Position numbers and translations under genes: made by a program. From an uncultured Chloroflexia bacterium (GTDB lineage: Bacteria > Chloroflexota > Ktedonobacteria > Ktedonobacterales > JADMIN01): a DNA stretch of 32,000 bases. Within the stretch, counting starts at the first letter, position 1; the number at the start of each line of letters is the position of its first letter. Location: positions 180,001 through 212,000 of the forward strand of contig CAVRAI010000001.1 of NCBI GenBank assembly GCA_963718915.1. Reading direction: 5' to 3'. Below the pieces are notes generated by a model. It worked only from the letters and a program-made list of their open reading frames with translations, had not been told where the DNA came from and ran no database searches. Shown here piece after piece: positions 3,546 to 18,359 of the stretch.

Positions 3546-3866
3546 ATGGCGATCAAAGAGGGCTGGCGCGGACGCTTCTTCGAGGACTTCGCTGTAGGCG
3601 ATGTCTACCAGCACCCGCTGGGGCGCACGGTCACCACGACCGATAACCTGTGGTTCACGCTGCTCACACAGAACACCGCCCCGATCCACTTCGACCACCA
3701 TTACGCGGCCCAGACCGCGTTCGGCAGGCCGCTGGTGGACTCGACCTTCACGCTGGCGCTGGTGACCGGGCAGAGCGTCACCGATATCTCGCAGAACGTC
3801 TTCGCCAATCTCGGCTGGGACGACGTGCGGCTCCCACAGCCCGTATTCGAGGGCGACACGATCTAC
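3546..3866 (+). pseudogene. MaoC-like (R)-hydratase / hot-dog fold dehydratase, N-terminal fragment interrupted by IS insertion
   Basis: The sequence MAIKEGWRGRFFEDFAVGDVYQHPLGRTVTTTDNLWFTLLTQNTAPIHFDHHYAAQTAFGRPLVDSTFTLALVTGQSVTDISQNVFANLGWDDVRLPQPVFEGDTIY is typical MaoC dehydratase sequence. Similarity ends after GDTIY (nt 3866). An RBS AAGGAG lies upstream of the ATG at 3546. Confidence 0.8.
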
Positions 3867-3932
3867 CGAAAAATCGGGCTGGGCCTTGGCTTGAGCTACG
3901 GACAGAGACGGGAAAAGCCGATAGGGCTACTC

Positions 3933-3961
3933 TTGACAGGCAAGCGCTTGTCTCCTATACT
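3933..3961 (+). promoter_or_regulatory. Near-consensus sigma-70 type promoter inside the IS left end, positioned for a leaderless tnpB mRNA
   Basis: TTGACA (3933-3938), a 17-nt spacer, then TATACT (3956-3961). The tnpB ATG at 3968 lies 7 nt after the -10 hexamer and no Shine-Dalgarno is present. Confidence 0.5.
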
Positions 3962-3967
3962 GGCCAC

Positions 3968-5140
3968 ATGAGTTATCGTACGATAGAAGTTGTGTGGCTC
4001 CCACGCACCAGCGCCGATTGGGCCACCTTCAGCGCCAGCCGCCAAGAGGCGGCACGGCTCTGGAATGATCTGGTGCGACGCCATCATCGTCTTCGCCGCC
4101 TGGCGTGGAAATGGCCCAGCAAGGCGCGCTGGCAACGCTGGGCCATCACCCCCGCGCGTCGCTATACTGGTTTGTCCGCGCAATCCACCCAGCAGATTAT
4201 CGGCGAGTTCTGCGAGGCCGTGGACTCGTGCCGCCAGTTGCGCAAGAACGGGCAGGCAGAGGCGCGCTATCCATGGCGTTTGCGCCGTTATCACGATATC
4301 GTCTATACCAACCAGGACGCGCGTATCCGCGACGGGTGGCTCATCCTGCCCCATGGCGCCAGTGGCACATTACGCATTCGTCTGCCCAGTACCATTACCC
4401 TGCCCGGACGGCTGATTGAAGTGCGCTTGTCGTACGGCCTCGTACGTCTGATCTGCGAGGTACCCGACGCGCAGCGCCCCCAAGCAACTGTGATCGGTGT
4501 GGATCTGGGGGTGAATACTCTGATCGCTGCCACGGATGGGCGAAAGGTCATCCTCATTAGCGGGCGCGCGGCCAAGGCGACCGTCCAATACCGCAACAAG
4601 CGGCTGGCCAGCATCCAGCATGCGCAAGCAGGCAAATCCAAAGGCTCGCGTCGCCACAAGCGCTTGCAACGCCGCAAATACCGGCTGCTGGACAAGACAG
4701 CGCGGCGCATCCGTGATCTGTGCCACAAGGCCACGCGGCAGGTCGCCGAGGCGTTCCCCGGCGCGCTGTGCTATGTGGGTGAGCCGTTCAACGCGGCTGC
4801 CCGGCGTATCGGACGAGTCCAGGCTCAGCAAGTGAGTACGGCGTGTACCCGCAAACTCATCCAGCAACTTGACTACAAGGCGGCTGGGGTGATCACCCTC
4901 GGCGAAAGCTATTCCTCGCAGACGTGCCCCGTATGCGGGGAGCGGAGCAAGCACCGCAGGATTTACCACTGCCCCACGTGTGGGGCAACGGCCCCACGGG
5001 ATGCTGTGGGTGCAGTCAATATCCTGTCCCTCGGCGTCCATGGCGCCATGCTTCCAGGTCGCGCTATTCCACAGCGCATCAAGTATCTGCACCCTTGGTG
5101 CAGTAGTTCCGGCGGACACCCGGCACGTAGCTCGGCCTAG
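3968..5140 (+). CDS. tnpB: TnpB (IS200/IS605 OrfB) RNA-guided endonuclease family protein, 390 aa
   Basis: The protein runs MSYRTIEVVWLP... with RuvC-like motifs VIGVDLGVNTL, CYVGEPF and RDAVGAVNI. A zinc ribbon CPVCGERSKHRRIYHCPTCG is present. The upstream part of ORF 3650..5140 is out-of-frame read-through of the MaoC fragment and is not part of the gene. Confidence 0.9.
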   Translation: MSYRTIEVVWLPRTSADWATFSASRQEAARLWNDLVRRHHRLRRLAWKWPSKARWQRWAITPARRYTGLSAQSTQQIIGEFCEAVDSCRQLRKNGQAEARYPWRLRRYHDIVYTNQDARIRDGWLILPHGASGTLRIRLPSTITLPGRLIEVRLSYGLVRLICEVPDAQRPQATVIGVDLGVNTLIAATDGRKVILISGRAAKATVQYRNKRLASIQHAQAGKSKGSRRHKRLQRRKYRLLDKTARRIRDLCHKATRQVAEAFPGALCYVGEPFNAAARRIGRVQAQQVSTACTRKLIQQLDYKAAGVITLGESYSSQTCPVCGERSKHRRIYHCPTCGATAPRDAVGAVNILSLGVHGAMLPGRAIPQRIKYLHPWCSSSGGHPARSSA

Positions 5141-5160
5141 CGTGCTAGCCGAGAATCCCC
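4990..5160 (+). ncRNA. Putative omega RNA (reRNA) scaffold overlapping the tnpB 3' end and right end; extent is a guess
   Basis: In characterised TnpB elements the guide RNA scaffold overlaps the 3' end of tnpB and the right end. Here a terminal hairpin (5131-5153) straddles the tnpB stop codon (5138-5140). No covariance model was run. Confidence 0.3.
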
Positions 5161-5176
5161 CAGATTTAACTGCGGG

Positions 5177-5290
5177 GAGTGTCACAACCAGGATGGCGTC
5201 GTCGTCATCACGTTTCAGCGCACGATCATGGTCTACAAGCGTGGCCATGCGCCCGAAATCCCTCGGCTTGGCCCAGTGGAGAGCCAGTGA
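5177..5290 (+). pseudogene. MaoC-like dehydratase, C-terminal fragment
   Basis: This frame gives ECHNQDGVVVITFQRTIMVYKRGHAPEIPRLGPVESQ*, the typical C-terminal strands of MaoC hot-dog proteins. About 15-20 residues expected between GDTIY and NQDG are not cleanly recoverable. A different frame at 5148-5190 reads AENPPDLTAGSVTTR. Confidence 0.7.
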
Positions 5291-5460
5291 AAGCCATCTG
5301 ATTGCCTCCCCGGCACGCACCCGAGTGTCTGGGTGGCGATGATCGAGGGCGGTTCGGTTGGCATCCGAGGCGTGGCAATATGCCAGGTCGATACTTCATA
5401 CTGGCGAGGAGGCAGCAGCCATACACGAGATAGCGGCGAGAAACAGAGAGGGGCGATACG

Positions 5461-6915
5461 ATGAAGGTGAAGATGATCTTACCCGCGCTGACCGAGGCGC
5501 TCAGCCCCTACTTCCGCCCCATCAAGTATTCGCTCTTCCCGCCGCTCGGCCTGGCGACGCTCGCGGGCTATCTGGACGCCGACGACGAGGTGACGCTCCA
5601 GGACGAGCATGTGGAGCGGCTCGACCTGGACGACGAGCCAGACCTGGTGGTCATCCAGGTCTATATCACCTCGGCCTCCCGCGCCTATGCGCTCGCCGAT
5701 CACTATCGCGCCAGAGGGGCGTACGTCGCGCTGGGCGGGCTGCACGTCACCTCGCTGCCGCGGGAAGCCGCCCAGCATGCGGATAGCATCTTTCTCGGCC
5801 CCGGCGAGGACACCTGGCCAACCTTCCTGGCAGACTACCGGGCAGGACACCCGGCGCCAGTCTACACATCGACCGTGCGCACACTGCAGGGTATCCCACG
5901 CATCCGGCGCGACCTGATCAAGCGGAGCCACTACCTCGTGCCTAACTCCATTGTGGTATCTCGCGGCTGCCCGCATGTCTGCGACTTCTGCTATAAAGAG
6001 GCCTTTTTCAAAGGGGGCAAATCGTTCTACACGCAACAGGTGGACGACGCGCTCGGCGAGATCGCGCGGCTGCCCGGACGGCATCTCTACTTCCTCGACG
6101 ATCACCTCTTCGGCAATCCACGGTTCGCGGCGAGCCTCTTCGAGGGCATGCGCGGGATGGGGCGACTGTGGCAGGCGGCAGGCACGGTGCAGTCGGTGGT
6201 GCGGCCGGGATTATTGGAGCAGGCCGCCGCGTGTGGTCTGCGCAGTCTCTTTGTCGGCTTCGAGACGCTCAATCCCGCGAACCTGCGGGAGCAGCGCAAA
6301 TACCAGAATCTCAACCGTGACTACTCCGCCGCCATCCGTCGCCTGCACGACCTCGGCGTCATGGTCAACGCGAGCTTCGTCTTCGGCATGGATGAGGACG
6401 ACGTGAGCGTCTTTGATCGGACCATCGAGTGGGCCGTTAGCCAGGGCATCGAGACGGCAACTTTCCACATTTTGACGCCCTATCCCGACACCGCTCTCTA
6501 CAAACGCATGGAGTCGCAGGGACGGCTGCTCCATAGCAACTGGGACCTCTACGACACGCGCCATGTCGTCTACCGCCCGGCCAAATTGACGCCCGAGGCG
6601 CTGGAGTCGGGCTACTGGCGCGCGTACCGGGACTTCTACCGCTGGAGCGCGATTGTGCGCGGGGCAGGCGCCCATGAGCGCTGGGGCGAACGCTTGCGCC
6701 ATGTCGCCTATGCTGGTGGCTGGAAGAAGTGCGAGCCGATGTGGGATCTCATTATCCGCGCCAAACGCGCATCAAGCATGCTCCCGGTTCTTGAGACGGT
6801 GCTGGCGGCGTTCGGCTCGCGTCGCCCACTGCGCGAAAGCGCCCCCGAGCCGGAGACGCTGCCTGTGCCTGTGCCTATACCTGAGCGTTGCGCCCCCTCG
6901 CCTGATGTTGCCTGA
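5461..6915 (+). CDS. B12-binding domain-containing radical SAM protein (class B radical SAM)
   Basis: 484 aa. The N-terminal B12-binding-like domain reads ILPAL...PPLGLATLAGYL...VVIQVYITSA. The radical SAM cluster motif is CPHVCDFC followed by GGKSFY. The C-terminal region is like DUF4070. An RBS GAGAGGGG lies upstream. Confidence 0.85.
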   Translation: MKVKMILPALTEALSPYFRPIKYSLFPPLGLATLAGYLDADDEVTLQDEHVERLDLDDEPDLVVIQVYITSASRAYALADHYRARGAYVALGGLHVTSLPREAAQHADSIFLGPGEDTWPTFLADYRAGHPAPVYTSTVRTLQGIPRIRRDLIKRSHYLVPNSIVVSRGCPHVCDFCYKEAFFKGGKSFYTQQVDDALGEIARLPGRHLYFLDDHLFGNPRFAASLFEGMRGMGRLWQAAGTVQSVVRPGLLEQAAACGLRSLFVGFETLNPANLREQRKYQNLNRDYSAAIRRLHDLGVMVNASFVFGMDEDDVSVFDRTIEWAVSQGIETATFHILTPYPDTALYKRMESQGRLLHSNWDLYDTRHVVYRPAKLTPEALESGYWRAYRDFYRWSAIVRGAGAHERWGERLRHVAYAGGWKKCEPMWDLIIRAKRASSMLPVLETVLAAFGSRRPLRESAPEPETLPVPVPIPERCAPSPDVA

Positions 6916-7108: not shown

Positions 7109-7747
7109 TTACGGCTTCAGTTCGATCAGGCGCTCTGCCAGCGCCTCGCGGTGACCCTGGGCATTCAGGTCGAAGACTGGCATTGCCGGAGTGGCGCCCT
7201 CCTCCTCGATAATGAAATCACAGTCAGCGAAAGGGTGGCCACACTCCTCCAGCAGGAGCGATAGATCGCCAGGCAGGACATAGACATCGAGCAGATCGGA
7301 ATCGATCAGCGTCGTGGCGACGATGTCGATTAGCTTCTCGGCCATGTCAGCCTGATAGCCCTCCCGCACGAAGCGTTCGAGCAGCTTGTCGAGGGCGCGC
7401 TCGCCTTCATAGCGCCGTCGCCGAATCTCCTCATTGCTATAGCGCGCACGATAGCGGCTCCAGTGTGACGGATCGAGCGTTGACTCCGGCAACAGGTGGG
7501 CTGACTCATCGCCATCGCCGGTCGGGACATATTCCAGTTCTTCCGGGATGCGCAGATGGCGAAAGAAACAAATCGCATCGCCGAAGTCGGCAAAGTAAGT
7601 ACACCATTCACCCATCGGAATCGCGCGCGCGGACTCGAAGATAACACACGATGTGGGCGACAATCCCTCATCCCATGGCGCCACTCTGCACTCAGGCGTC
7701 ATAGCATCCTGCCAACGCTGCTGGTACTCTGCTAATGTTCTGCTCAT
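7109..7747 (-). CDS. Hypothetical acidic cytoplasmic protein, no family recognised
   Basis: The 214-aa ORF in the track starts at a TTG (7753). An ATG at 7747 with GAGAGGT upstream is the more likely start. Composition is coding-like and no motif was recognised. Confidence 0.55.
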   Translation of the reverse strand: MSRTLAEYQQRWQDAMTPECRVAPWDEGLSPTSCVIFESARAIPMGEWCTYFADFGDAICFFRHLRIPEELEYVPTGDGDESAHLLPESTLDPSHWSRYRARYSNEEIRRRRYEGERALDKLLERFVREGYQADMAEKLIDIVATTLIDSDLLDVYVLPGDLSLLLEECGHPFADCDFIIEEEGATPAMPVFDLNAQGHREALAERLIELKP

Positions 7748-8058
7748 GGCCAATACCTCTCATCGAAGGTGGAGCGGCGAGAACGAGCTGTATCCCGCCC
7801 GTCGTCTTCCCGCTACGGCAATGTAAGACCAGCGCCCAATGCTGGTCGTGGCGGCATTTTTCAGGCACACGCTGGTACCTGTCGTGTCCTCAATGACACA
7901 TGATCTCACGTCGAATCATGCCAAGCGCCACATCTGCACATCTGCTGTATACCGTATTTGACGCAGCGCACTCGCTCTAACTCTAAGGCTGTTTCGACCT
8001 GTCCGATTCATTCGACCCAACACCTAACAGGACAATCGCGATCAACCATCGGCGCTGC

Positions 8059-8529
8059 TCAGGCGCTTGCGCGCGCCAGCAGAATGGTCGGCGACTCGGC
8101 TTCGCGGGCCGGTACGTGATTGCACGCGCCCAGCCGGTACTTCATCTTGCGAGCAATGGAGCGCAACCCCCGCCGGTTACGGTAGATGGTGATGACATCT
8201 CCGTCTGAGGAGACGATCACAATCGAGCCTTCCAGCCGCGATACCCAGCTCGCGCGGCGGTCGCATGGGGGAATATCGCGCCGACCAAGAAAATAGAACA
8301 GTGCGCCCGTCCGCTGGATCATCCGGCCATGTGCCAGCACATAGTCCACCGCGTCTGGCGCCACATTGCGGCGAGCGCTCCGCCTGCGCGCATGTCGGGT
8401 AAACGAGGCGACACTCGATCCCAGCCCCTGTTCTGTGAATGAACCTCCCTCCTCCAATACCTCCATCGTGTCCAGCACATCACGTACATCCACCATACCC
8501 ATCGTGCCCTGCCCACTCTCATCTCTCAC
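8059..8529 (-). CDS. DUF4258-like protein (toxin-like small nuclease fold), start uncertain
   Basis: The core FTRHARRRSARRNVAPDAVDYVLAHGRMIQRTGALFYFLGRR...GSIVIVSSDGDVITIYRNRR follows the DUF4258 pattern (HA..R...R.I....I......G..I ... VIT.Y). The track start is a GTG at 8529, with alternative ATGs at 8502 and 8496. Confidence 0.5.
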   Translation of the reverse strand: MRDESGQGTMGMVDVRDVLDTMEVLEEGGSFTEQGLGSSVASFTRHARRRSARRNVAPDAVDYVLAHGRMIQRTGALFYFLGRRDIPPCDRRASWVSRLEGSIVIVSSDGDVITIYRNRRGLRSIARKMKYRLGACNHVPAREAESPTILLARASA

Positions 8530-8670
8530 ATCTCTCGCGCCGGTTTTTGCTCTTGCCGTCTATGGTTTAGATGCGTCATTCGCGGACAAAAGCGGAAATG
8601 GGGTAGAAGGATCTGCGATTTTTCGTGGGAACAGAGGGCGCTGGCGGCTGCCCTGCACACCGTCTTTGTC

Positions 8671-8708
8671 GGCCAGCCCTTCTACCCAGTCCCTGCCTGG
8701 CCTGCTAC
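8671..8708. repeat. 38-bp repeat, copy A (31/38 identical to 9490-9527)
   Basis: GGCCAGCCCTTCTACCCAGTCCCTGCCTGGCCTGCTAC versus GGTCAGCCACTCTATCCAGCCTCTGCCTGACCTGCTAC, aligned by eye. The two copies flank the esterase gene. Confidence 0.7.
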
Positions 8709-8783
8709 CGCGCCAGTTCATACGCGGTGAGAAGAGACATCTGCGCATACTATCAGAAAAGCTTACAGAGCAGAGGTGCGAAA

Positions 8784-9446
8784 ATGAATGACCGAGCCAT
8801 CGCGGGAGAGTTTGTGAGCGAGACATTCGACTACGACGGTGGTCGGCAGGTTACGGTGTATGTCCCGCCAGATCCGCCTGAGGCAGTCGTCTTCGCTGGT
8901 GACGGGCAGAGGATCTCGCAGTGGGGCCGGTTCCTCGAGGCAGCCGACGTACCGCCGACGATGATCGTCGGTATACATGGGCTGACGGACGAGAAGCTGC
9001 GACTCCAGGAGTATTCACCGGTCTTTGACGCTGAACGGTTCGCAGCACATGAGCAGTTCTTCGTGGAAGACGTCCGCCACTGGACAGCGTCGCAGTTTGG
9101 AGTAGCCCTGCCCACTGAACGCACCGCGGTGTTCGGCGCCTCGGCGGGTGGAGAACTCGCGCTCGCTCTTGGGCTCCGGCATCCCGACGTTTATGGCGCG
9201 ATCTTCTGCGCCTCGCCGGGCGCGGGCTACCAACCGGCCGAGGTGATGTCGAGTAGGATTCCGCGCACGTACCTTGTTGCCGGCACGCAAGAGCCGTTCT
9301 TCCTTGAGAACGCGGCGAGGTGGGCGGCTGCGCTGCGCGCTGCGGGCGCCGACGTCGTCATGAAAGAGCGGGTCGGATCGCACGGCGGCGCGTTCTGGCG
9401 AAATGAGTTCCCGCTGATGGTGGCGTGGGCGTTTGGACGCAAATAG
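8784..9446 (+). CDS. Alpha/beta hydrolase, putative esterase family (enterochelin-esterase-like)
   Basis: The protein starts MNDRAIAGEF... from an ATG at 8784 with AGAGGTG upstream. The nucleophile elbow is GASAGG, and PxxxxYLVAGTQEPFF and GSHGGAFW are typical of the putative-esterase family. Confidence 0.75.
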   Translation: MNDRAIAGEFVSETFDYDGGRQVTVYVPPDPPEAVVFAGDGQRISQWGRFLEAADVPPTMIVGIHGLTDEKLRLQEYSPVFDAERFAAHEQFFVEDVRHWTASQFGVALPTERTAVFGASAGGELALALGLRHPDVYGAIFCASPGAGYQPAEVMSSRIPRTYLVAGTQEPFFLENAARWAAALRAAGADVVMKERVGSHGGAFWRNEFPLMVAWAFGRK

Positions 9447-9725: not shown

Positions 9726-12700
9726 TCAGTTGCTCGTGGCGGCGGGTATTGGGCTGGGATCGGCGCTCTCGGGGTCGGATGGGCAGACATAGCAGAAGGC
9801 GCAGGCGGCGCAACGACGCTCATTGGGGCGTGGCGCGAAAGCACCGGCGACGATACCCCTCGCCGCTTCATCCAGTTTGTCCAGCTTCGAGCGGCTCTTC
9901 CGCTCTGGGTCAAGATAGCGTTCGGCGGCTTTGCGCGCTTCATCGGTGACATCGCGCTGATGCCGTGGATCATACGAGTCCGCCGAGTCCGCCGAGTCCG
10001 CCGACGCATCATCCAGCGTCCCGCTAGTGTAGGCAAGGACGATCCGTACCGGAACTCCAGGGTGTTGCTGTTGATACGCCAGATAGTAGAGCGGCAGGGT
10101 CAGATCGTCTTTATGGGCGTCGCGGGGACGCCCGGTATGCAGTCGCACCAGGATGGTCAGCGGCGCGGCGCCCTCACCAGAGGAGATGCTACCGTCGATC
10201 TCGCGGTCAGCCGTCACCTCGACGACGCAGTGCTTCAGGTCGGCCTGTAGTGGCTGCGCCAGCCGCACCCGCTCGGACGCCGCCACTCCCTCCGGCGACG
10301 TGATCGCCCGCCACTCTTCGCGCAGAATAGCCTCCGCAGCCTGCCGATAGAAGTCTTCGTAGGCATGCCCCGCTGGGCCGACCTCGTCCCAGAGCGGTTG
10401 AAGTCGCGCCTCGGCGGCTTTCCAGTCCGCTCCGGGGCTGGCTGCCTGGACATCACGTAATGTCCGCGCGCCCTGGCGGATGAACGCATGGAAGCTGTAG
10501 ACAGCCTCTCGCGCGGGATCGCGAAAATCGTGGATGCGCAGGTATTTGTATTGCAGTGGACATTCCAGATACTGGTTCAGGTCGTGCAGCCGGAAGACTG
10601 GCTTCTCGCGTGGCGATTGCGCGGGCGTCCGCTCAGACACAGGCGCCGCAGCGAACGAACCATCGCTCTCGCTTTCGTCCTCTTCGTCGTCGTTCGTCTC
10701 CTCGAAGGTGGCGGCGACGGCCAGCAGACGCTCGCACTCCTCGTCGGAGAGCAGCGGTTCGGCGGCCTCCCAACCCGGCGCGCCATCCATGAGCGCCAGC
10801 AGCGATGATCGCTCCGCCGTGCGCCCGTTGCTATAGCTGGCGGCGCGACTGAAGGCAACGATATCGCGCGCGCGGGTGACGCCGACGTAGAAGAGGCAGC
10901 GCTCCTCCGCGTCACGCTCGCCGGGTGTATCGCCATCGCGAAATCCGGGCGGCGCAATCTCTTCGCGCCCAGGCCTGCCCGCCGGAAACTGGCCGTGCGC
11001 CAGGTTGGGCAGCAGCACTACCGGAAATTCCAGCCCTTTGCTCTGGTGCAGTGTCAGGATATGGACGGCATCCTCATTTCCAGCCGGGACAGGCACCGCG
11101 ACATCGGTTGCCCGCAGCGCGCGCAGATAGTGCAGAAAGCAGGTCACTACCGGGACGGCCTCGTCAGGTTGCGCGGAGGCAGGGGCAGCGGATGGCATGA
11201 CATCGGCATTGGGCGCGGGAGCGAGCGTATCGGGTTGCGCGGCGCGCGCCGCCTTCCGATGGCGTACCGCGCGGCTCAATCGGGCGCGGAACTCTGGCTC
11301 TGCCTGCCAGCGCGCGTCGAAGCGCCATGCCAGCCGCACCAGTTCGCCGAGCGCCGCCAGCGCCTGGCTCGCCTGCCCAGCGGTCTCCAGGCCAGGAAGC
11401 GCATCCTGTCGCTGTGGCGCATCCTGGCCATCGGCGACGCGCGCCAGCCGCCAGGCATATCCTCCCGACAGCAGCAGAAAATCCGCCAGCTTGGCGCCCA
11501 CGAAGGAGCTATTGCGCAGTCCTGTTGCAATTTCGCCCAGCCGGACGAGTCCGGCGCGTGTCGTCGGCGCGAGCGGCGGAATCTGGCCAAGCATGTGTCC
11601 GTCCCGTAGCGCGCCAGGGAGCGCGCGCTGCTGGATTGAGAGATAGCGCGCCGTGGCGGCAAGCTCATTCCCTGCGGGAGCTGAGCAACCAAGGGCGACC
11701 AGGAGCGGAGCGGAGCGCAGGACTCCGCGCGCATCTGGTCCCGCCGCCAGTGTGAGCAGCATCAGCGCGTCCTTCACCTCTGACCGCTCGAAGAAATCGC
11801 CAAGCTGGCTGACGGGTACGCCTCGTCTGGTGAGGATGGCGGCGATCTGGCGCGCCTGCTTGTGCGTGCGACAGAGAATCGCCTGGTCGCCATAGCGATA
11901 GTCGTGCACATGGAAGCGCTCGATGGCCGCCGCCAGCCCAACGCGCTCGTGTGCCGCGCTGGCGAATGTCTCCGTGCGCAGAATGGGTTGATGGGCGCCG
12001 TCGCCACGCGCCGGTTCCAGGTCGAGCGGTTGCAGCGCCTCATGCAACGCGCCTGTGGATGGGACTGGGGACAAGGAGGTCGGGGCCAGCCGCGCCAGCT
12101 GCGTCGCCATCGCGGAACCGAGCCGCACAATGCCTGGCACAGCGCGATAGCATCGTCGCAGCCTCAGCACACGCAGATTGGGGTAGCGCTCCGCCAGTCG
12201 CGGGAGATTGCCCGGTGAGGCGCCACGAAATCGATAGATCGACTGATTCTGATCGCCCACCACCCAGAGACCGCCGCCAGCGTCGCCCGCGATCAGCAGC
12301 AGCAATTCGGCAGCCGCGCGGTTGGTATCCTGGAACTCATCCACGAGAATCTGGGAATAGCGCCCACGTACGTGGGCCAAAACGGCGCGATTCGCTCGCA
12401 ACAACTCGACGGCGCGTTGAATCAGGCCGCCAAAGTCCACCAGTCCGCGCCGACGCAATGCACGATCCCAGACCGCATAGGCCGCGGCCCGCTCGCGCGC
12501 TCGTGCAATCTGCTCATCGGTAAATGCGCCATCTGGCGGCTGAATCTTCCGGCTCTGCCTTTTCCGCGCGCTCCCTGGCGATTCGATCTCCGTTGATGCG
12601 TCTGGCGCGGGCATCCGCGGCATCGCATCCACCAGCGCCAGGTAGTCCATGGGGGTCAGCAGCTCGTCGCGCGCGTGGGAGAAATCATCCAGGAGCGTGC

Positions 12701-13796
12701 GCAGGTGCGCGGTGGGATTGCCCAGCGAGCGGTAGTAGTGCAGTGGCAACTCGCCGAGCAACCCCTCCATCAGCAGGAAGGCGTTCGGCTCGTCGAGAAT
12801 GCGGAAGTCGGCGGTGAGTTCGGCCTCGTCGGGCGTGTGTGGCGCTTGCGAGGCGTATTCGCGCAGGAGCGTGGCGGCGAAGGCGTGGATCGTCATGATG
12901 GGCATACGCTCGCCCGGCAGTCCGCTTCGCTCCAGGCGCTCGCGCATCTCGCCAGCGGCACGGTTCGAGAACGTCAATGCCAGCACCTCTTCTGGCTGGA
13001 TGTGGCGTTCTTCGATGAGATGGGCGGCGCGACCAACCAGGGTCGCCGTCTTACCTGTTCCAGGGCCAGCCACGACCAGCGCGGGGCCGGGCGCGCGCGC
13101 GGCCAGCCGCTGCCCGTCATCCAGTTGCGCGATCAGTTCACCCGGAGCGTGTGCTTCACCGCTGTTTGCCTCTTGCGATGGTGCGGGCGCGCTTATGCCA
13201 TCCGTCGGTCGCTCCGGCGCCAGGACAGCGTCGATGAGGCGGCGGCGCGCCAGCAGATGCGAGATGCCAAAGTGGAGAGCCAGTTGCGCGGCGCCTATCG
13301 CGGAGCCTGAGGTAAAGATGCGGCGCACCTCGGCGCGTGGGGCCAGCAATTCGGCGGCAAAGGCGTTGGCCTCCTGTTCGCGCCGAACCCGTGGCGAATA
13401 TTCCTCGACGACACGGTCTTCGCTACGCAGGGCGGCGGCATCGGTCTGTTGATTCACTGCCCGCTCGTCACATGGCGCAAAGAGGCGGATACCCTCGCCG
13501 CGATGGAGCATGTAGTGGCCCAGTTCGTGCGCGATGGCAAACCGCCGCAGTTCTGGGTCCAGGTCGGCGCTCAGCCAGATGGCGCCGCCGAGACGGGGAT
13601 TCTCCCACGCCCAGAGTTGCAGCCGTGAATAGGCGCCGCCCAGCATCACATCGTCGCTGGGGCAGGGCTGAAGCTCGATCCCCAGGATGACGCGCAGGTG
13701 GTCGCTGTGGACGGCATCCGCGCTGGTGTCAGCGATCAGTTGCGCGCGCAAGGTAGCGGCGGCGCGTTCAATAACTTCGATACGTTTTGTAGGCAT
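9726..13796 (-). CDS. Fusion protein: ImmA/IrrE-type (M78) metallopeptidase + UvrD/PcrA-type SF1 helicase + C-terminal Cas4/AddB-like PD-(D/E)XK nuclease with Cys cluster
   Basis: 1356 aa from an ATG at 13796 with TGAGGA upstream. Peptidase motifs are HELGH (aa 90-94) and EQEANAFAAELLAP. Helicase motifs are GPGTGKT, TFSNRAAGEM, VDEFQDTN, GDQNQSIYRFRGA, LHQSKGLEFP and EERCLFYVGVTRA. The nuclease part has YLECPLQYKY, LPLYYLAYQQ and a terminal CAACAFCYVC. Confidence 0.9.
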   Translation of the reverse strand: MPTKRIEVIERAAATLRAQLIADTSADAVHSDHLRVILGIELQPCPSDDVMLGGAYSRLQLWAWENPRLGGAIWLSADLDPELRRFAIAHELGHYMLHRGEGIRLFAPCDERAVNQQTDAAALRSEDRVVEEYSPRVRREQEANAFAAELLAPRAEVRRIFTSGSAIGAAQLALHFGISHLLARRRLIDAVLAPERPTDGISAPAPSQEANSGEAHAPGELIAQLDDGQRLAARAPGPALVVAGPGTGKTATLVGRAAHLIEERHIQPEEVLALTFSNRAAGEMRERLERSGLPGERMPIMTIHAFAATLLREYASQAPHTPDEAELTADFRILDEPNAFLLMEGLLGELPLHYYRSLGNPTAHLRTLLDDFSHARDELLTPMDYLALVDAMPRMPAPDASTEIESPGSARKRQSRKIQPPDGAFTDEQIARARERAAAYAVWDRALRRRGLVDFGGLIQRAVELLRANRAVLAHVRGRYSQILVDEFQDTNRAAAELLLLIAGDAGGGLWVVGDQNQSIYRFRGASPGNLPRLAERYPNLRVLRLRRCYRAVPGIVRLGSAMATQLARLAPTSLSPVPSTGALHEALQPLDLEPARGDGAHQPILRTETFASAAHERVGLAAAIERFHVHDYRYGDQAILCRTHKQARQIAAILTRRGVPVSQLGDFFERSEVKDALMLLTLAAGPDARGVLRSAPLLVALGCSAPAGNELAATARYLSIQQRALPGALRDGHMLGQIPPLAPTTRAGLVRLGEIATGLRNSSFVGAKLADFLLLSGGYAWRLARVADGQDAPQRQDALPGLETAGQASQALAALGELVRLAWRFDARWQAEPEFRARLSRAVRHRKAARAAQPDTLAPAPNADVMPSAAPASAQPDEAVPVVTCFLHYLRALRATDVAVPVPAGNEDAVHILTLHQSKGLEFPVVLLPNLAHGQFPAGRPGREEIAPPGFRDGDTPGERDAEERCLFYVGVTRARDIVAFSRAASYSNGRTAERSSLLALMDGAPGWEAAEPLLSDEECERLLAVAATFEETNDDEEDESESDGSFAAAPVSERTPAQSPREKPVFRLHDLNQYLECPLQYKYLRIHDFRDPAREAVYSFHAFIRQGARTLRDVQAASPGADWKAAEARLQPLWDEVGPAGHAYEDFYRQAAEAILREEWRAITSPEGVAASERVRLAQPLQADLKHCVVEVTADREIDGSISSGEGAAPLTILVRLHTGRPRDAHKDDLTLPLYYLAYQQQHPGVPVRIVLAYTSGTLDDASADSADSADSYDPRHQRDVTDEARKAAERYLDPERKSRSKLDKLDEAARGIVAGAFAPRPNERRCAACAFCYVCPSDPESADPSPIPAATSN
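9975..10001. repeat. 9-bp tandem repeat CGAGTCCGC x3 inside the helicase-nuclease gene
   Basis: Read directly from the sequence. On the minus strand it encodes SADSADSADS in a linker just before the C-terminal Cys cluster region. Confidence 0.9.
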
Positions 13797-13870: not shown

Positions 13871-14515
13871 TTACGGGCTGTTATTCGCCTCCGCGCGCAC
13901 GATCTCGGCCCACTCACGCTTGCCTTCGGGGGAGAGCGCGCTGGCGTCGACCGCGTCGAGGAAGGTCTGCTGCTTCTGGTCTGGCTGCTGGTCGGCCATG
14001 TAGAAGCCGCCCGCTGGCGTTGCGTTCAGATACGCGCGGATGACCTCGGGCGCCGTCTTCAGCACGTCGGCGAATCGCTGGATGAGCGCGCGCGGGATGG
14101 ACGCGGCGCTGATGGCGTGCGCCTCCAGCCTTTGCAGGAGCGCGCCGGTCAGGCCAACGGCCTCGGCGAGTTGTGGTGGTGTGTAGTTGGCGCGTAACCC
14201 CAATTGCACCAGGCTTTCGACAGCGACGGGCGCCGCTTGCACGCTCTGTGCCCGTATCCGCGCCATCGCCTTCTCGGCTGCGGGCGATAAGACGGGATCG
14301 GGTGGCCCAACCAGCGATTCGGTCGCAAATCCGATAGTATGGTAATAGACGGCAAACTCCAGCAGTTCGCCGGTATATTGCGGGTAACGCCGCACGTAGT
14401 CTTCGATGCGTGGCGATTGCCCGGCATGATAGGCGTCGACGTACTGCGCAATGATGCTGTCGATCTCGTACTGGCGCTTCCGCTGTGCGCGTCGAGCATT
14501 ATTCTGATCAGACAC
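13871..14515 (-). CDS. XRE-like helix-turn-helix protein (ImmR-like or anti-sigma-like partner), otherwise uncharacterised
   Basis: The preferred start is a GTG at 14515, preceded by GAGGAGGG and overlapping the sigma gene stop by 8 nt (GTGTCTGA). The alternative is an ATG at 14539. The HTH-like segment reads YTPPQLAEAVGLTGALLQRLEAHAISAASIP. Confidence 0.65.
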   Translation of the reverse strand: MSDQNNARRAQRKRQYEIDSIIAQYVDAYHAGQSPRIEDYVRRYPQYTGELLEFAVYYHTIGFATESLVGPPDPVLSPAAEKAMARIRAQSVQAAPVAVESLVQLGLRANYTPPQLAEAVGLTGALLQRLEAHAISAASIPRALIQRFADVLKTAPEVIRAYLNATPAGGFYMADQQPDQKQQTFLDAVDASALSPEGKREWAEIVRAEANNSP

Positions 14516-15509
14516 CGTTGCCCTCCTCACCGCCGCCATAGCTCACGCCGAGTTCGCGCAGGGCTTTTTTCAGAAGATACCGTACCATCCGGGGAGTGAC
14601 ACCCAGTTTCGCGGCCGTTTCGTCCTGAGGCAGACTCTCCCGGAACCGATCGATGATCACTGTTCGCTGGTCTTCGGGCAACTCGCGCACCTTGTCGAGC
14701 AGATCACTCAGATCAACCTGTCGAAACGGCGTTTGAGCGTCCATATCTTCCAGTTGGTCGTCGAGCGGAAAGTCGCCTTCACGCTCTGGCGTTGCCTGTA
14801 TGCTATCTATTACATTGGTAGGGACGCGAGTTGGCTTTTCTACACCTGGCCGCTGCCACTCCCCCGCTTTTTTCATGACATCCTGGGCAACATGTTGCCG
14901 CAACCGTAAGAACGCTGTCTCAAAGCGGGTGAGCAGGAATATCTCATCATCGCTAGCTTCATCGTCGCTCAACTCCTGCCACAGTTTAATGAAGCACTCC
15001 TGCTCAAGATCCTGCTGAAGTTCTGGTTTCATGCCGGAGCGCGCCATTCCGGCGACATCCCTGGACCAATGCTTTACGCGGGGTTGAACCCGTCGCCAGA
15101 TCATCTTCAGAACACGGTTCGCATCATCGTTTGCGCCAGCGGCATAACGCTCGCGGTAACAGCGCGCCAGCACCTCCAATGGCAACCGCTGCTCGGCAAT
15201 TGGCTGCTCGATGCGCTGCCAGTAGTCGCCGCTGCCAACTGGAGGGAGCGCGTGGAATTCCGCGTCCAGTTGCGCGCGCAGGGGCGCATAGGGATCATCC
15301 TGGGTATCTTGCACGCCTGACTCCTTCATTTGATAGTAGTCAGTCGCGTCGCCGTAATTCGCTGGCCTGATCGCCGTGGCATATGCCAGAGCGTCGTCAG
15401 TCAGTGGGCGCTCGCGATTACGCCCAGTATAGGAGATTGCGCTGCCAGCGTCAAAGTCTGACGTAAAGACATCGCGCGGGTAATGACCTGACATCGCGAC
15501 ATTGTCCAT
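14508..15509 (-). CDS. Atypical sigma-70 family (ECF-like) RNA polymerase sigma factor with long N-terminal extension
   Basis: 333 aa. A region 2-like segment reads LEQECFIKLWQEL. The region 4 HTH reads LPEDQRTVIIDRFRESLPQDETAAKLGVTPRMVRYLLKKALRELG. About 160 aa at the N-terminus have no motif I recognise. A strong RBS GAGGAGGGG lies upstream. Confidence 0.7.
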   Translation of the reverse strand: MDNVAMSGHYPRDVFTSDFDAGSAISYTGRNRERPLTDDALAYATAIRPANYGDATDYYQMKESGVQDTQDDPYAPLRAQLDAEFHALPPVGSGDYWQRIEQPIAEQRLPLEVLARCYRERYAAGANDDANRVLKMIWRRVQPRVKHWSRDVAGMARSGMKPELQQDLEQECFIKLWQELSDDEASDDEIFLLTRFETAFLRLRQHVAQDVMKKAGEWQRPGVEKPTRVPTNVIDSIQATPEREGDFPLDDQLEDMDAQTPFRQVDLSDLLDKVRELPEDQRTVIIDRFRESLPQDETAAKLGVTPRMVRYLLKKALRELGVSYGGGEEGNGV

Positions 15510-15539: not shown

Positions 15540-16475
15540 CTATCTATCCCATACAGCACGATCAGAGGGAAGCGGAAAACCCCACCTCACTCGAAGACGC
15601 CGCGCGCGACCATACGCACATCCCCGGTGACGTATACCGCCGCGATCACCCCATCCGCGCCCTCGACCCGGACACGCATCTGGCTGGGCCGACTCGAGGA
15701 AACGCCCCTGTCGCAGGGTGATTTCCTCATTAGGCGACGCTAACCCATGCTGGACGAGATAGGCGCCGACCGGGCCAGCCGCACTGCCAGTGGCAACGTC
15801 CTCCACGCGGCCGTCGTTATCCCAGGTGCGTCCCTCACGAGTAGGTACATGTAGCACGTAGACGAACTTCGCCCCGACTGAGGCAAGCAATGCCTCGAAT
15901 CCAGGCTGCACAATCGCGGCGCGCTCCAGCCCACTGGCGAGCGGCGCCAGCAGATACGGCAGTCCAGTCGAGACGACCTCCAGCGGCAGACCGGGATAGA
16001 GATCGCTTTCTTCGAGATCGAGCGCGGCGAGGATCAGACTGACCATCTCCGCACCCAGCGTCGCGCCAAATTGCGGACGGCCCTGATCCATCGTCGCCTC
16101 ATACCAGCCCTCGCGGCGGATGGTGCTGACCTGGATTGGTCCCACCGGAAGCTCCAGCGTCCACTCGGCGCGCTCGCCCGCGTCGCCGACATAGTACAGC
16201 CGCTCGTGCAGCACACAAGCCGCGCCAAGCACGGGATGCCCCGCGAACGGCAGTTCTTCCTCCATTGTGAAGACCCGCGCCCCGACGCGATGTATCTCAG
16301 TAGTCGGCATGAGAAAAATCGACTCGAACTGACGCATTTCCCGCGTGATGCCCTGCATCGTCGCAGGCGCAAGCCCACCCGCCTCGGGAAAAACGATCAG
16401 CCCATTGCCCGAGAGCGCCTCGCGCGTGAATACATCGACGTGGCGATACTCCAGACCCTGCAATGACTCATCCAT
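15540..16475 (-). CDS. PhzF-family isomerase/epimerase with an apparent 1-nt frameshift near its 3' end
   Basis: YRHVDVFTREALSGNGLIVF...MRQFESIFL...LPFAGHPVLGAA is a clear PhzF signature. After ITLRQG (about nt 15690) the family-typical C-terminus RPSQMRVRVEGADGVIAAVYVTGDVRMVARGVFE* is read in another frame, with its stop at 15587-15589. The annotated frame runs on to 15540 with Arg/Gly-rich junk. Confidence 0.8.
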   Translation of the reverse strand: MDESLQGLEYRHVDVFTREALSGNGLIVFPEAGGLAPATMQGITREMRQFESIFLMPTTEIHRVGARVFTMEEELPFAGHPVLGAACVLHERLYYVGDAGERAEWTLELPVGPIQVSTIRREGWYEATMDQGRPQFGATLGAEMVSLILAALDLEESDLYPGLPLEVVSTGLPYLLAPLASGLERAAIVQPGFEALLASVGAKFVYVLHVPTREGRTWDNDGRVEDVATGSAAGPVGAYLVQHGLASPNEEITLRQGRFLESAQPDACPGRGRGWGDRGGIRHRGCAYGRARRLRVRWGFPLPSDRAVWDR

Positions 16476-16632: not shown

Positions 16633-17007
16633 ATGAGCCAGATGAACCAGCAGAGCCAGTTCGACCAGAGAGAGCCTGCCGCTGAGGATGCGCCAGCGGC
16701 GACGGAGAAGGTGATCGGCGAGATTTACGAGGCGCTGCACAACGTCTACGACCCAGAACTGGGTATCAATATCGTTGATCTGGGGCTGGTCTACAATGTC
16801 GATCTGCGCGAAGACGGCTTCGTGACAATCACGATGACGCTGACAACGCCCGGCTGCCCGATGCACGAGTCCATCGGCGAGGGTGTGGGCGCCGCGCTCC
16901 AGCCCATCGCGGGCGTGACCGGCGGTACAATCCAGCTCGTCTGGGAACCGCGCTGGGAGCCTTCGATGATGACCGAGGCGGGCCGCGCCGAGCTGGGCTA
17001 CTGGTGA
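16633..17007 (+). CDS. DUF59 / MIP18-family Fe-S cluster assembly protein (SufT/PaaD-like)
   Basis: VYDPELGINIVDLGLVYNVDL...VTITMTLTTPGCPM is the canonical DUF59 core. Confidence 0.85.
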   Translation: MSQMNQQSQFDQREPAAEDAPAATEKVIGEIYEALHNVYDPELGINIVDLGLVYNVDLREDGFVTITMTLTTPGCPMHESIGEGVGAALQPIAGVTGGTIQLVWEPRWEPSMMTEAGRAELGYW

Positions 17008-18359
17008 GTGGGATGGGCGAGCGCTTTATGCGGGGCGAGGATGCCCACGACGTTCGCCGCGGCAAGGATCAGCCCGACGCCAAGGGCCACCGCGGCGATC
17101 TGGAGCGGGATAACCCAGTCGAGCAGGGCAGTCACGGCGACGAGCGGCAGCGCTCCGTTCACCAGCCAGAAGCTGATCGTCGCCCAGCGCTGATGCACCA
17201 GGTCGCGCATGAGCGGCACTTTCTGCCGTCCGACGAGCGCGCCGTAGCGTGACTGCCAGACCAGGAACGGGACGATCTTATAGAGATAGCCCAGCGTGCT
17301 CTGCCCCAGCCAGCCGACCAGCGCCGCCAGCCCCAGCGCGGCGAAGAGGCGCGGCGATCCCCAGCCGACGAGCGCGGCGACAACCCCCAGTGGGATAACC
17401 ACCGCGAGATAGCTTACCGCCGCGATGCCGTGATGCTGGGTCACATCGAGCACCCTGCGTTTGCGCTGGAGCAACATCCGCGCGTAGTCCCAGGCGAAGA
17501 GCCAGACGGCGGCAATAAGCAGCAGCCCGCCGATGAGCGCGAGTGGCGGCCAGGAGAGCGCGAAGCCCACCGCCATCCCCACAATGCCGCCATTGAGCAG
17601 CGCAAAGACACGTCGTCCCGGCATATCCTCATGCCCATGTACCAGCGCAAACATCCGTACGAGCGTATAGGAGACGCCCATCAGCGTGCACGTCAGCCAG
17701 CCGACGACGCCCAGCGTGATATGCGCCAGCAGCAGCCGGCCTGTCCCCGCGCCAAGGAAACCGAAGGCGAGATTGAGCGCGGCGGTCAGTCCAAGACAGA
17801 CGACAAGACAGAGATAGATCAGCGAGGCGGAGAGATAGCGCGCCGTCAGCGGGTGTGTCTCATGCTGCCGGTGCGCGTAGATGAGCGTCGCGCCGAGGAT
17901 GGTGGCATAGTGCGCGACCGCCAGCGCCACCAGCGAGCCGCCGACAATCAGCAGTGGCATGCGCCAGAACCAGAAGCCTGAGAGCAGCAGCGCGACCCCC
18001 ACGAGGTAGATGGGATATTGCCAGCGCGCAAACCGGGCCGCTCGTAGCGGGCTGGTGAGGATAACCGGAGCCAGTTGCAGCGAGGCCCCCATGATCGTCA
18101 TTGTCAGCCAGCCGAGAGTGGCCGTATGCACAAGCGTGAGCACATGCGGAAACCCCGGCGCGAGGATGGCCTGTGGCGCGACCCACGGCAGCAACGTCCC
18201 GAACAGCGCGGCGCCCAGGACGCCCGTCACCAGAAACGGCAGCGGCAGCCAGAGCGGCACGCCCCCACGCGCGACGCCGCTCAACCCCTGGATGGCGACC
18301 AGAGGCGCGCCAGCGGTTGGTGGCTTTGCAGTCTGAATGGGACGCATGCTGGGCTGCAT
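16998..18359 (-). CDS. Polytopic membrane protein (about 12 TM) with conserved His pairs; function unknown, possibly a heme/copper-binding oxidase-like or NnrS-like protein
   Basis: 453 aa and almost entirely hydrophobic helices. His-containing motifs are HVLTLVHTATLGW, LLAHITLGVVGW and LVHGHE. It lies immediately downstream of a DUF2249 gene (19-nt gap), with an RBS AAAGGA. Confidence 0.6.
   Translation of the reverse strand: MQPSMRPIQTAKPPTAGAPLVAIQGLSGVARGGVPLWLPLPFLVTGVLGAALFGTLLPWVAPQAILAPGFPHVLTLVHTATLGWLTMTIMGASLQLAPVILTSPLRAARFARWQYPIYLVGVALLLSGFWFWRMPLLIVGGSLVALAVAHYATILGATLIYAHRQHETHPLTARYLSASLIYLCLVVCLGLTAALNLAFGFLGAGTGRLLLAHITLGVVGWLTCTLMGVSYTLVRMFALVHGHEDMPGRRVFALLNGGIVGMAVGFALSWPPLALIGGLLLIAAVWLFAWDYARMLLQRKRRVLDVTQHHGIAAVSYLAVVIPLGVVAALVGWGSPRLFAALGLAALVGWLGQSTLGYLYKIVPFLVWQSRYGALVGRQKVPLMRDLVHQRWATISFWLVNGALPLVAVTALLDWVIPLQIAAVALGVGLILAAANVVGILAPHKALAHPTHQ

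Follow-up and report, generated by a model that had tools for sequence, protein, structure and literature searches.

A CapP-like protease fused to a UvrD-type helicase and a degenerate Cas4-fold domain, a candidate sensor arm of a bacterial transcription switch

A 32,000-nucleotide stretch of DNA from an uncultured Ktedonobacterales bacterium (phylum Chloroflexota; contig CAVRAI010000001.1, positions 180,001 to 212,000; referred to here as the window) carries on its reverse strand a gene at window positions 9726..13796 (-), gene C, that encodes a protein with three parts: an M78 metallopeptidase, a UvrD-like helicase and a Cas4/AddB-fold domain with a degenerate active site. We are highly confident that this is a genuine protease of the CapP type fused to a helicase and a dead nuclease, and that it is encoded inside a conserved regulatory cassette. 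Most likely, the protein senses DNA and switches genes on, and is not an enzyme that cuts DNA. We assign a probability of roughly 60% to the reading that it is the sensor-protease arm of a three-gene transcription switch, the other members of which are a sigma factor and an XRE-type helix-turn-helix (HTH) partner. An earlier note, made by a model from the letters of this stretch, had recognized the three parts of the protein and described their combination as unfamiliar; it overlooked the gene context, in which the fusion comes third in a conserved cassette, after the genes for a sigma factor and an XRE-HTH protein.

Domains and residue conservation of the fusion protein

The open reading frame (ORF) at 9726-13796(-), called mechanically and supported by Pfam and homology searches, encodes 1356 amino acids (aa), and the window coordinates of its motifs were checked by translation. 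All of the motifs listed in the earlier note are present at the residue numbers that it gave: HELGH (aa 90-94), EQEANAFAAELLAP (140-153), GPGTGKT (244-250), DEFQDTN (486-492), GDQNQSIYRFRGA (514-526), SKGLEFP (919-925), VGVTRA (971-976), YLECPLQYKY (1076-1085) and CAACAFCYVC (1329-1338). Four Pfam domains exceed their curated cut-offs, namely Peptidase_M78 (PF06114; aa 70-187, 46.6 bits, cut-off 22), UvrD-helicase (PF00580; aa 229-538, 195.7 bits, E = 1.6e-57), UvrD_C (97.5 bits, E = 1.4e-27, reaching aa 983) and PDDEXK_1 (aa 1073-1339, 37.5 bits, cut-off 22). Homologues found in a database search include an identical protein, from a 510-kb contig, and more than 100 full-length proteins (30-82% identity) that have the same three Pfam domains and are mostly labelled Ktedonobacterales. 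In all, the architecture is seen in more than 200 protein clusters from at least five phyla. The GC content of the gene is uniform along its length and the same full-length architecture is seen in more than 100 independent assemblies; an assembly chimera, which the earlier note had raised as a possible explanation of the architecture, is therefore excluded. The residues on which the domain assignments depend were also followed through 114 full-length homologues, in which H90, E91, H94 and E140 of the peptidase and C1079, C1329, C1332 and C1338 of the C-terminal domain are near-invariant. The homologues are labelled PcrA, UvrD or ATP-dependent helicase in databases, and these labels miss their most likely role.

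The N-terminal part (aa 1-195, 13212..13796 (-)) is a CapP/IrrE-type M78 metallopeptidase followed by an HTH-like linker. Compared with the PDB as a single sequence, the domain gave a marginal CapP match and a profile was required; the profile of the N-terminal 228 residues matched CapP (7t5t, E = 1.5e-12) and IrrE (3dte, E = 1.1e-7), and the top match of the peptidase domain in the defence library was the PADLOC capP model (E = 6.5e-16). With a +2 chain-numbering offset allowed for, H90, E91 and H94 of the HELGH motif (13515-13529 (-)), the cysteine-switch residue C109 (13470-13472 (-)) and the third zinc ligand E140 (13377-13379 (-)) align onto CapP H96, E97, H100, C113 and E129, respectively, and the alignment runs on through the central HTH-like linker of CapP. 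The two histidines and two glutamates are unchanged in 111 of 111 aligned homologues, and C109 is kept in 108 of the 111 and is invariant in the Ktedonobacterales group. The family assignment in the earlier note (an ImmA/IrrE-type HEXXH peptidase) thus holds and can be refined to CapP-like.

CapP and IrrE are proteases that are activated by single-stranded DNA (ssDNA) and cut an XRE-HTH repressor; bound between the peptidase domain and the GAF domain, the ssDNA is proposed to push the cysteine switch out of place (bioRxiv 10.64898/2026.05.16.725639, 10.1101/2022.04.27.489752; PMC10904395). In CapP, the switch residue C113 completes the coordination of the zinc and is proposed to keep the enzyme off until ssDNA binds. 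The alignment predicts that C109 may cap the zinc of the fusion protein in the same way. No match to a GAF domain was found anywhere in the fusion protein; a variable, Pro/Ala-rich linker (aa 196-220, 13137..13211 (-); conservation 0.21 with gaps) leads instead to the helicase, the Q-motif of which starts at aa 229. The UvrD motor and the Cas4-like module take the place of the ssDNA-binding GAF domain of CapP.

The helicase core (aa 221-1000, 10797..13136 (-)) is of the UvrD/PcrA-like superfamily 1A (SF1A) type by Pfam and motif invariance, with all motifs intact, including the Walker A motif (helicase motif I, 13047-13067 (-)) and DEFQD (motif II, 12321-12341 (-)). Across 114 homologues the helicase motifs (Q, I, Ia and II-VI) are invariant or nearly so, the conserved elements being Q229, GPGTGKT, DEFQD, GDxNQSIYxFRGA, KGLEF and VGxTRA; the full UvrD motif set read by eye in the earlier note is thereby borne out. 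The protein does not reach the NCBIfam equivalog cut-offs for PcrA (the best, 228 bits against 911), UvrD (216 against 1144) or Rep (202 against 951), and its AddA and RecB scores lie far under the cut-offs. Its top PADLOC matches are UvrD-type GajB models. We rejected an identity as Gabija GajB: the GajB matches reflect generic UvrD similarity and no GajA-like gene lies beside the fusion.

The C-terminal domain (aa 1061-1340, 9777..10616 (-)) gave nothing against the PDB as a single sequence and also required a profile. An AlphaFold2 (AF2) model of aa 1060-1345 (predicted local distance difference test score, pLDDT, 86), submitted to Foldseek, matched the Cas4-family protein ACE1 (9iab, E = 1.8e-7) and then AdnA, AddB, Cas4 SSO0001, Exo5 and Dna2; this structural search, one of the checks proposed in the earlier note, confirms a Cas4/AddB-type fold. 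The cysteines C1079 (10560-10562 (-)) and C1329, C1332 and C1338 (9783-9812 (-)) are kept in at least 110 of the 114 homologues, and a [4Fe-4S] cluster is predicted from these four residues. C1335 is poorly kept (58 of 114), so the ligand set is C-X249-C-X2-C-X5-C, which is the AddB/Cas4 pattern; of the terminal CAACAFCYVC block that had been singled out as a unit, three cysteines are conserved and C1335 is not.

The active site is degenerate throughout the family. The canonical h-h-(D/E)-x-K-T-G motif reads L-V-R1218-L-H1220-T-G-R in the fusion proteins (R1218-L-H1220, 10137-10145 (-)), and a profile-PDB alignment places 'lvRlHtG' over the 'IVDFKTG' and 'ILDLKTG' of ACE1 in weak matches (E = 0.14-0.24). 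The acid position is Arg in 99 of 114 homologues and the Lys position is His in 74, Arg in 16 and Lys in 5. The position of the motif-IV Gln, occupied here by T1233, is Ala, Arg or Thr in the family, and of the catalytic residues only the motif-II Asp, D1197 (10206-10208 (-)), is retained. The same holds in 74 further full-length fusions, taken as representatives at 50% identity, in which the cysteines are kept in 71-72 and the acid position is Arg in 44, Lys in 8 and Asp in 3; in seven plasmid-borne fusions the motif is R-x-(R/Q/K)-(T/A)-G. By contrast, nine UvrD-Cas4 proteins from other phyla that have no M78 domain retain GRxDRVD, hhDYK(T/S) and LQLxxYA, and their cysteine ligands align with those of the fusion. 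This comparison set surfaced in a contig pattern scan that was dominated by the generic helicase pattern VDEFQDTN, and the matches of that scan were rejected as fusion orthologues as it had returned ordinary UvrD/PcrA genes. The Fe-S 'staple' of AddB is needed to bind the ends of double-stranded DNA and not for ATPase activity or translocation (PMC3378879). The retention of the cysteines with loss of the catalytic residues points to DNA binding or sensing by the C-terminal module. Of the four-Cys nuclease domain proposed from the letters, the fold and the conserved Fe-S cysteines therefore stand and the word 'nuclease' does not, as other residues occupy the places of the catalytic (D/E)xK and Gln throughout the clade.

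To gauge the spread of the family, we compared the M78 domain by itself (aa 1-200) with 1.84 billion representatives and analysed the best 150 of 656 matches. These contained 141 new proteins, 74 of them at least 1000 aa long, of which 65 bear HExxH, Walker A and CX2CX5C. Another 35, shorter matches hold a Walker A motif about 130-150 residues past HExxH and are thus truncated fusions; 109 of the 141 proteins demonstrably carry M78 and Walker A. As judged from these sequences, this M78 subfamily occurs almost only joined to a helicase. The family comprises at least about 110 clusters at 50% identity in at least five phyla and was absent from all phage records searched. We rejected the idea of a prophage or integrative and conjugative element (ICE) immunity module, given that no phage record holds the fusion and no phage genes surround it in the window. 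One 8.5-kb contig labelled 'Nitrososphaerota archaeon' encodes both a fusion homologue (P0008) and a homologue of the HTH partner (P0162); these are 60-64% identical to Ktedonobacterales proteins and the contig is probably mis-binned in that metagenome-assembled genome.

The cassette, its downstream operons and a promoter-like motif

Two genes precede the fusion gene on the same strand. Gene A (14508..15314 (-)) encodes a sigma-70 family factor resembling those of the extracytoplasmic function (ECF) group, which probably has 268 aa and a GTG start at 15314, 6 nt after the ribosome-binding site (RBS) AAGGAG. It scores 46.7 bits with NCBIfam TIGR02937 (cut-off 42.9), a match that covers regions 2-4, and has a Pfam Sigma70_r4_2 match (E = 2.7e-10); its orthologues are 252-309 aa long, and the one in Mesorhizobium huakuii is named sigma-70 family sigma factor by the NCBI annotation pipeline PGAP. 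Ahead of region 2, the sigma factor carries about 70 additional N-terminal residues. Gene B (13871..14515 (-)) overlaps the stop of gene A by 8 bp and encodes a 214-aa XRE-type HTH partner, which we regard as the putative protease substrate and anti-sigma factor or repressor. All three genes have a Shine-Dalgarno sequence 6 nt ahead of the start. The HTH assignment of the partner comes from sub-threshold HTH_31 and HTH_3 Pfam matches (aa ~100-165) and from an AF2 model (pLDDT 75) with a five-helix XRE-like domain, for which Foldseek returned the XRE folds of SinR, 434 Cro, the N-terminal domain of CapH and DdrO with weak E-values. The family of gene B has about 100 clusters, nearly all of unannotated 'hypothetical' proteins. 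Its best-conserved segment is C-terminal (FYYAD..P..Q..F(L)DA..S.L.P..K.EW) and disordered-to-helical, reminiscent, by analogy, of the cleavage regions of CapH, DdrO and ImmR.

We examined 19 fusion loci drawn from the window, metagenomic loci and plasmid records. The arrangement A-B-fusion is present in 16 of them: the window, eight metagenomic loci (32-70% identity) and seven plasmid records, from Rhizobium leguminosarum, R. phaseoli, Mesorhizobium huakuii, Sinorhizobium medicae, Roseovarius sp. THAF8, Leptolyngbya boryana NIES-2135 and an Abditibacteriota isolate. The cassette therefore spans Chloroflexota, Actinomycetota, Alphaproteobacteria, Cyanobacteriota and Abditibacteriota. Across these phyla the A proteins form one homologous family and the B proteins another, with no A-to-B cross matches. 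None of the 19 loci has a second motor or nuclease subunit of the AddAB/AdnAB/RecBCD type as a neighbour. A 230-aa N-terminal extension in the homologue P0334 was considered as a fused HTH partner and rejected; it has no profile match and looks like a mis-called start. The earlier note had treated the protein as a stand-alone enzyme with an added 'regulatory protease'; the conserved cassette instead suggests that the fusion is the sensor arm of a transcription switch like that of CapH and CapP.

Two of the genomic contexts deserve separate mention. Locus L086 is without the sigma/HTH pair; immediately upstream of its fusion gene, and in the same orientation, are two pairs of a HisKA_3 histidine kinase and a GerE response regulator (2209-5904), which may be alternative regulatory wiring. 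On the 5.07-Mb Ktedonobacterales contig of L001/L002, genes (2420-4273) for an SMC_N/AAA_23 protein (possibly RecN-like, as read from those two domains), an NAD kinase and RsfS lie about 2 kb from the cassette; this is a housekeeping context, whereas in other phyla the cassette is found on plasmids and in defence islands.

Seven loci, on plasmids or in defence islands, have a ubiquitin-like operon of the Bub/Bil type in the orientation of the fusion gene, beginning 70-110 bp past its end. The downstream genes encode Multi_ubiq-E2, JAB-ThiF and BubE in L084 (Acidimicrobiia-type); multiubiquitin and ThiF in L096, L098 and L099, with DUF6527 also in L099; and a four-gene set resembling a Bil-type Ubl/E2/JAB/E1 operon in L097 (Ubl, ubiquitin-like protein). 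In L094 and L100 the operon is putative, a similar set of hypothetical genes in each, including in L094 a 456-aa protein with a weak ThiF match (E = 0.013). CapH and CapP are known to accompany 168 of 544 (31%) Bub operons (PMC11601596), and capH and capP plus a sigma factor have been reported in 24 systems of the cyclic-oligonucleotide-based anti-phage signalling type (CBASS). The Bub operon of L. boryana has all five regulator columns empty in Dataset EV1 (PMC13373217), and in L096, from L. boryana NIES-2135, the cassette immediately precedes an operon of the Bub type. There is thus at least one Bub operon in the published tables that is listed without a regulator although a record of the same species shows the cassette in front of it. 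CapP entries are tabulated for Bub operons of R. phaseoli, and some such entries may be the fused form.

A shared sequence element connects the cassette to what follows it. The pattern TTCCG(G/C/A)-N16-hexamer occurs in 7 of 10 short intergenic stretches that separate the fusion gene from the following gene in its orientation, and in 0 of 10 on the opposite strand (chance per region 0.114, P about 5e-6), and it is also found upstream of the sigma gene in ten cassette loci. It precedes the Bub/Bil-type operons in L084, L094, L098 and L100. The two copies in L084 are identical at 24 of 32 positions (hexamers CGATTG and CGACTG), and the hexamers are likewise paired within loci in L094 (CGATCA in both) and L100 (TTTGTA and GTTGTA). 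A two-block, asymmetric element of fixed spacing, located 60-95 nt before start codons, fits an ECF-type promoter that would serve both autoregulation and the output operon. The element is thus a candidate promoter of the cassette sigma factor, its function being predicted from position and pattern; it may instead be an operator.

Within the window, a pattern scan gave 4 matches against 1.01 expected. One candidate promoter, TTCCGC-N16-TGTATG (15550..15577 (-)), lies upstream of the cassette operon and another, TTCCGC-N16-CGCATC (8570..8597 (-)), upstream of a gene for a DUF4258-like protein. The other two matches were treated as chance, at 10569-10595 (within the fusion coding sequence) and 27064-27090 (no gene downstream); the second of these, a TTCCG-N18-GNAT match on the (+) strand, overlaps a 73-aa ORF (27019-27240 (-)) in a stretch of about 900 bp that has no larger ORF. 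About 110 nt upstream of the sigma start is a near-consensus promoter of the housekeeping type, TTGACG-17 nt-TATACT (15426..15454 (-)), recognized by its conservation as TTGAC(G/C)-N17/18-CTATACT in six loci (the window, L001, L083, L088, L089 and L090). It falls inside the N-terminal extension of the mechanically called sigma ORF, which argues that the extension is not translated. No convincing palindrome that could serve as an operator was seen by eye to be shared among the sigma upstream regions, and an Rfam scan of the window for known RNA elements was empty. The sigma leader of about 110 nt ends in CTGAC...AAGGAG TCAGG (15315-15345 (-)), a possible 5-bp hairpin bracketing the RBS; this is conserved in the leaders of the closest relatives (L088 and L089), perhaps as a result of translational control or simply of shared ancestry.

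The DUF4258-like protein (147 aa, 8059..8502 (-)) is a candidate output of the cassette. Its homologues (56-67% identity) lie immediately after the fusion gene in L088 (10201-10620) and L090 (10194-10610), with the TTCCG-N16 motif at the homologous upstream position; in the window an esterase gene (8625-9446(+)) separates it from the fusion gene. All three proteins, of about 140 aa, match PF14076 below threshold (22.8 bits against 25) and share an invariant H-A-R-x-R-x-A-R-R-N motif, and they may be toxin-like. The linkage is confined to these three Ktedonobacterales-type loci; we therefore rejected the gene as a core member of the cassette and consider it a lineage-specific candidate output.

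A proposed DNA-sensing switch and its alternatives

The domain identities, the conservation and loss of residues, the gene linkage, the adjacency to Ubl operons and the shared promoter-like motif were computed; all steps of the mechanism that we propose are inferred. At rest, Cys109 would cap the zinc of the active site in the manner of CapP. The helicase and Fe-S module would load onto ssDNA or a DNA end arising from damage or from invading DNA, and ATP-dependent engagement of this DNA would displace the cysteine-switch loop. The freed protease would then cut the HTH partner, probably within the linker or helix of its conserved C-terminal part (the predicted site is near F171-Y172 of the 214-aa protein), and so release sigma-dependent transcription from TTCCG-N16-hexamer promoters. 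These would drive the cassette itself, in positive feedback, together with the output operon next to it. On plasmids and in defence islands the output would be a ubiquitin-like operon of the Bub/Bil type, and in the Ktedonobacterales-type genome the DUF4258-like gene. The role of the partner as anti-sigma factor, repressor or both is putative, and it would be the protease substrate by analogy with related systems.

Several observations weigh against this proposal. The cysteine of the switch is found in just 2 of the 7 plasmid-borne fusions, so activation through it cannot be universal. The sigma/HTH pair is missing in 3 of the 19 loci (L085, L086 and L091), the HTH assignment of the partner comes from sub-threshold Pfam matches and weak Foldseek E-values, and no anti-sigma domain was detected in it by Pfam, NCBIfam or Foldseek. 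Three of 10 output regions have no TTCCG motif, several sigma genes also have none upstream, and the motif is unlike the common GGAAC-type -35 element of ECF factors; the window operon also carries the strong housekeeping-type promoter. The DUF4258-like linkage is present in just 3 of 9 Ktedonobacterales-type loci. D1197 and a His remain in the C-terminal domain, and loss of (D/E)xK is not strict proof of lost nuclease activity. For every member of the family, DNA-stimulated cleavage of the partner would follow by analogy with CapP, IrrE and ImmA.

The alternative closest to the earlier note is a helicase-nuclease effector that degrades foreign or broken DNA, as do AddAB, AdnAB and Nhi-like proteins, with the M78 domain merely tuning the activity or maturation of its own protein. 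Its fold and motifs do resemble those of AdnA, AddB and Cas4, its top PADLOC matches are the UvrD-type GajB models and some loci lie within defence islands. We nevertheless consider an effector unlikely: the (D/E)xK and Gln residues are replaced in essentially all fusions and kept in the relatives without M78, neither a GajA/OLD partner nor a second nuclease subunit is adjacent, the AddA and RecB scores are far too low, no phage record has the fusion, and the tight linkage to a sigma factor and an HTH gene indicates regulation. The catalytic residues being replaced across the clade, the comparison with AddAB and Nhi-like effectors misleads. A redox or metal-stress signal, in which the protease becomes active when the [4Fe-4S] cluster is oxidized or lost, or when the zinc-bound Cys109 is oxidized, and the helicase serves as a chromosome tether, would explain why four Fe-S cysteines are conserved despite lost catalysis and would suit the conserved cysteine switch of the Ktedonobacterales group; the IrrE system responds to radiation and oxidative stress. 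This account is improbable in view of the invariance of every motif for ATPase and translocase function, a sign that motor activity is under selection, of the direct activation of CapP and IrrE by ssDNA, of the structural role of the AddB cluster in binding DNA ends and of the missing cysteine switch in 5 of 7 plasmid fusions.

It is also doubtful that the protease has a substrate other than the HTH partner, such as a sigma pro-sequence that is removed or the fusion itself, cut in cis to release the helicase. The extension of about 70 aa before sigma region 2 and the flexible linker between peptidase and helicase would offer such sites, but every characterized M78 regulator (ImmA, IrrE and CapP) cuts a neighbouring XRE-HTH protein, and gene B shows the tightest linkage of any gene; the partner that it encodes has homologues in the other phyla and the invariant disordered-to-helical C-terminal segment that is typical of such substrates. 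Very improbable, finally, is a type II toxin-antitoxin-like XRE/COG2856 pair without signalling, in which the large protein is a toxin restrained by the HTH protein. COG2856-Xre pairs have been predicted to be toxin-antitoxin systems (PMC3632139) and the fusion has a weak NCBIfam match to the spr1629 repressor/antitoxin family; against this stand the conserved sigma factor as a third partner, the conserved placement directly upstream of output operons with a shared promoter motif, and a C-terminal domain with no destructive catalytic site left.

The replacement of GAF by a helicase and an inactivated Fe-S module implies active, ATP-dependent sampling of DNA structure as the trigger of the transcription switch. 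To our knowledge, the known regulators CapW, CapH/CapP as well as CapK/CapS all bind ssDNA passively, and sensing that costs ATP would, if true, be a first. We tentatively propose that an ATP-driven translocase is the input that releases an ECF-like sigma factor for plasmid-borne Bub/Bil immune operons, and that in Ktedonobacterales the same input may serve a chromosomal stress or damage response with the DUF4258-like protein as output. The fusion would also be a clear case of a repair-type helicase-nuclease converted to a sensor. It bears on an active question, that of when bacteria switch on costly or suicidal immune operons, and links a family of proteins to ubiquitin-like conjugation operons of still unsettled biological role. 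Cultured, tractable carriers include Leptolyngbya boryana NIES-2135 (fusion BAY59486.1, HTH partner BAY59485.1), Rhizobium leguminosarum (fusion WP_233938990.1, HTH partner WP_233938987.1), R. phaseoli, Mesorhizobium huakuii, Sinorhizobium medicae and Roseovarius sp. THAF8. The searchable literature yielded no description of a helicase-fused M78 protein, in agreement with the unfamiliarity expressed in the earlier note, and no helicase is mentioned in PMC11601596, the CapK/CapS paper or the two CapP papers. The logic of CapH and CapP is already known; what is new is the SF1 motor and inactivated Fe-S nuclease in place of GAF, with a dedicated sigma factor alongside.

Neighbouring genes and comparison with known systems

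Two proteins of the window without a Pfam match, of 214 aa (7109-7753 (-)) and 453 aa (16998-18359 (-)), are conserved in L088 (61% and 82-86% identity, respectively), so synteny extends past the cassette; the gene for the larger one lies within the most extreme AT skew of the window (0.307 at 17001-18000). Further away, an 853-aa protein (231-2792 (+)) combines DUF4062 with an AAA_16 NTPase and many TPR repeats and resembles the STAND-type NTPases often met in conflict systems. A 634-aa protein (29518-31422 (-)) with a TIR_2/ThsB-like TIR domain (E = 1e-23) may be the product of a defence gene, but one located some 16 kb away from the cassette. A TnpB / IS605 OrfB-type protein with a Cas12f-like TNB domain (3650-5140 (+)) is a relative of transposon-associated RNA-guided nucleases. 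ARAGORN called a tRNA-Thr(CGU) at 31783-31874 (+), which at 92 nt is unusually long and may contain an insertion or be a mis-call.

Among known systems, CapP and CapH ('controller of adjacent pathways'), which regulate CBASS, Bub and further immune operons, offer the most extensive likeness: an M78 HEXXH peptidase with the same zinc ligands, an aligned cysteine-switch Cys and an HTH-like linker; a paired gene of the XRE-HTH type; a position directly upstream of Bub-type operons; and a sigma-70 family gene, which accompanies capH and capP in the 24 reported CBASS systems. The differences are equally clear. CapP has about 290 aa and a C-terminal, ssDNA-sensing GAF domain, whereas the fusion has about 1150 aa of UvrD helicase and dead Cas4-like Fe-S module; unlike CapH, the partner, of about 210 aa, has an extra N-terminal helical domain and a central rather than N-terminal HTH; and the cassette runs in the order sigma, HTH, protease, all co-directional with the output operon. 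IrrE/PprI with DdrO in the radiation response of Deinococcus and ImmA with ImmR in ICEBs1 and prophages share the peptidase family and, under the proposed mechanism, the protease-mediated inactivation of an XRE repressor after DNA damage; the fusion differs from them in having an ATP-driven motor and a sigma factor and no GAF, and the window has no phage or ICE context.

On the DNA-processing side, the succession of a UvrD-type SF1 motor and a RecB/Cas4 fold with the C...CX2CX5C ligands of a predicted [4Fe-4S] 'iron staple' recalls AddAB, AdnAB and RecBCD as well as Cas4, ACE1, Dna2 and Exo5. Compared with AddAB, AdnAB and RecBCD, however, the fusion is a single polypeptide without a partner subunit, has an N-terminal protease and has lost (D/E)xK and Gln clade-wide. 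The nine single-chain UvrD-Cas4 proteins without M78 (L006, L022, L027, L029, L033, L045, L050, L054 and L069) are colinear with aa ~220-1340 (28-36% identity) and have the same cysteine ligands; they differ in keeping the canonical nuclease motifs and in lacking the peptidase, and they likely resemble the ancestral form. ECF sigma/anti-sigma systems controlled by proteolysis, lastly, resemble the cassette in a sigma gene with a translationally coupled partner and, under the proposed mechanism, in a protease as the activating step and in an autoregulatory promoter shared with the target operon. They differ in that the partner of the cassette has an HTH and no recognizable anti-sigma domain, that the -35-like element is TTCCG and not GGAAC, and that the fusion protease is cytoplasmic and, in the proposed model, would be gated by DNA.

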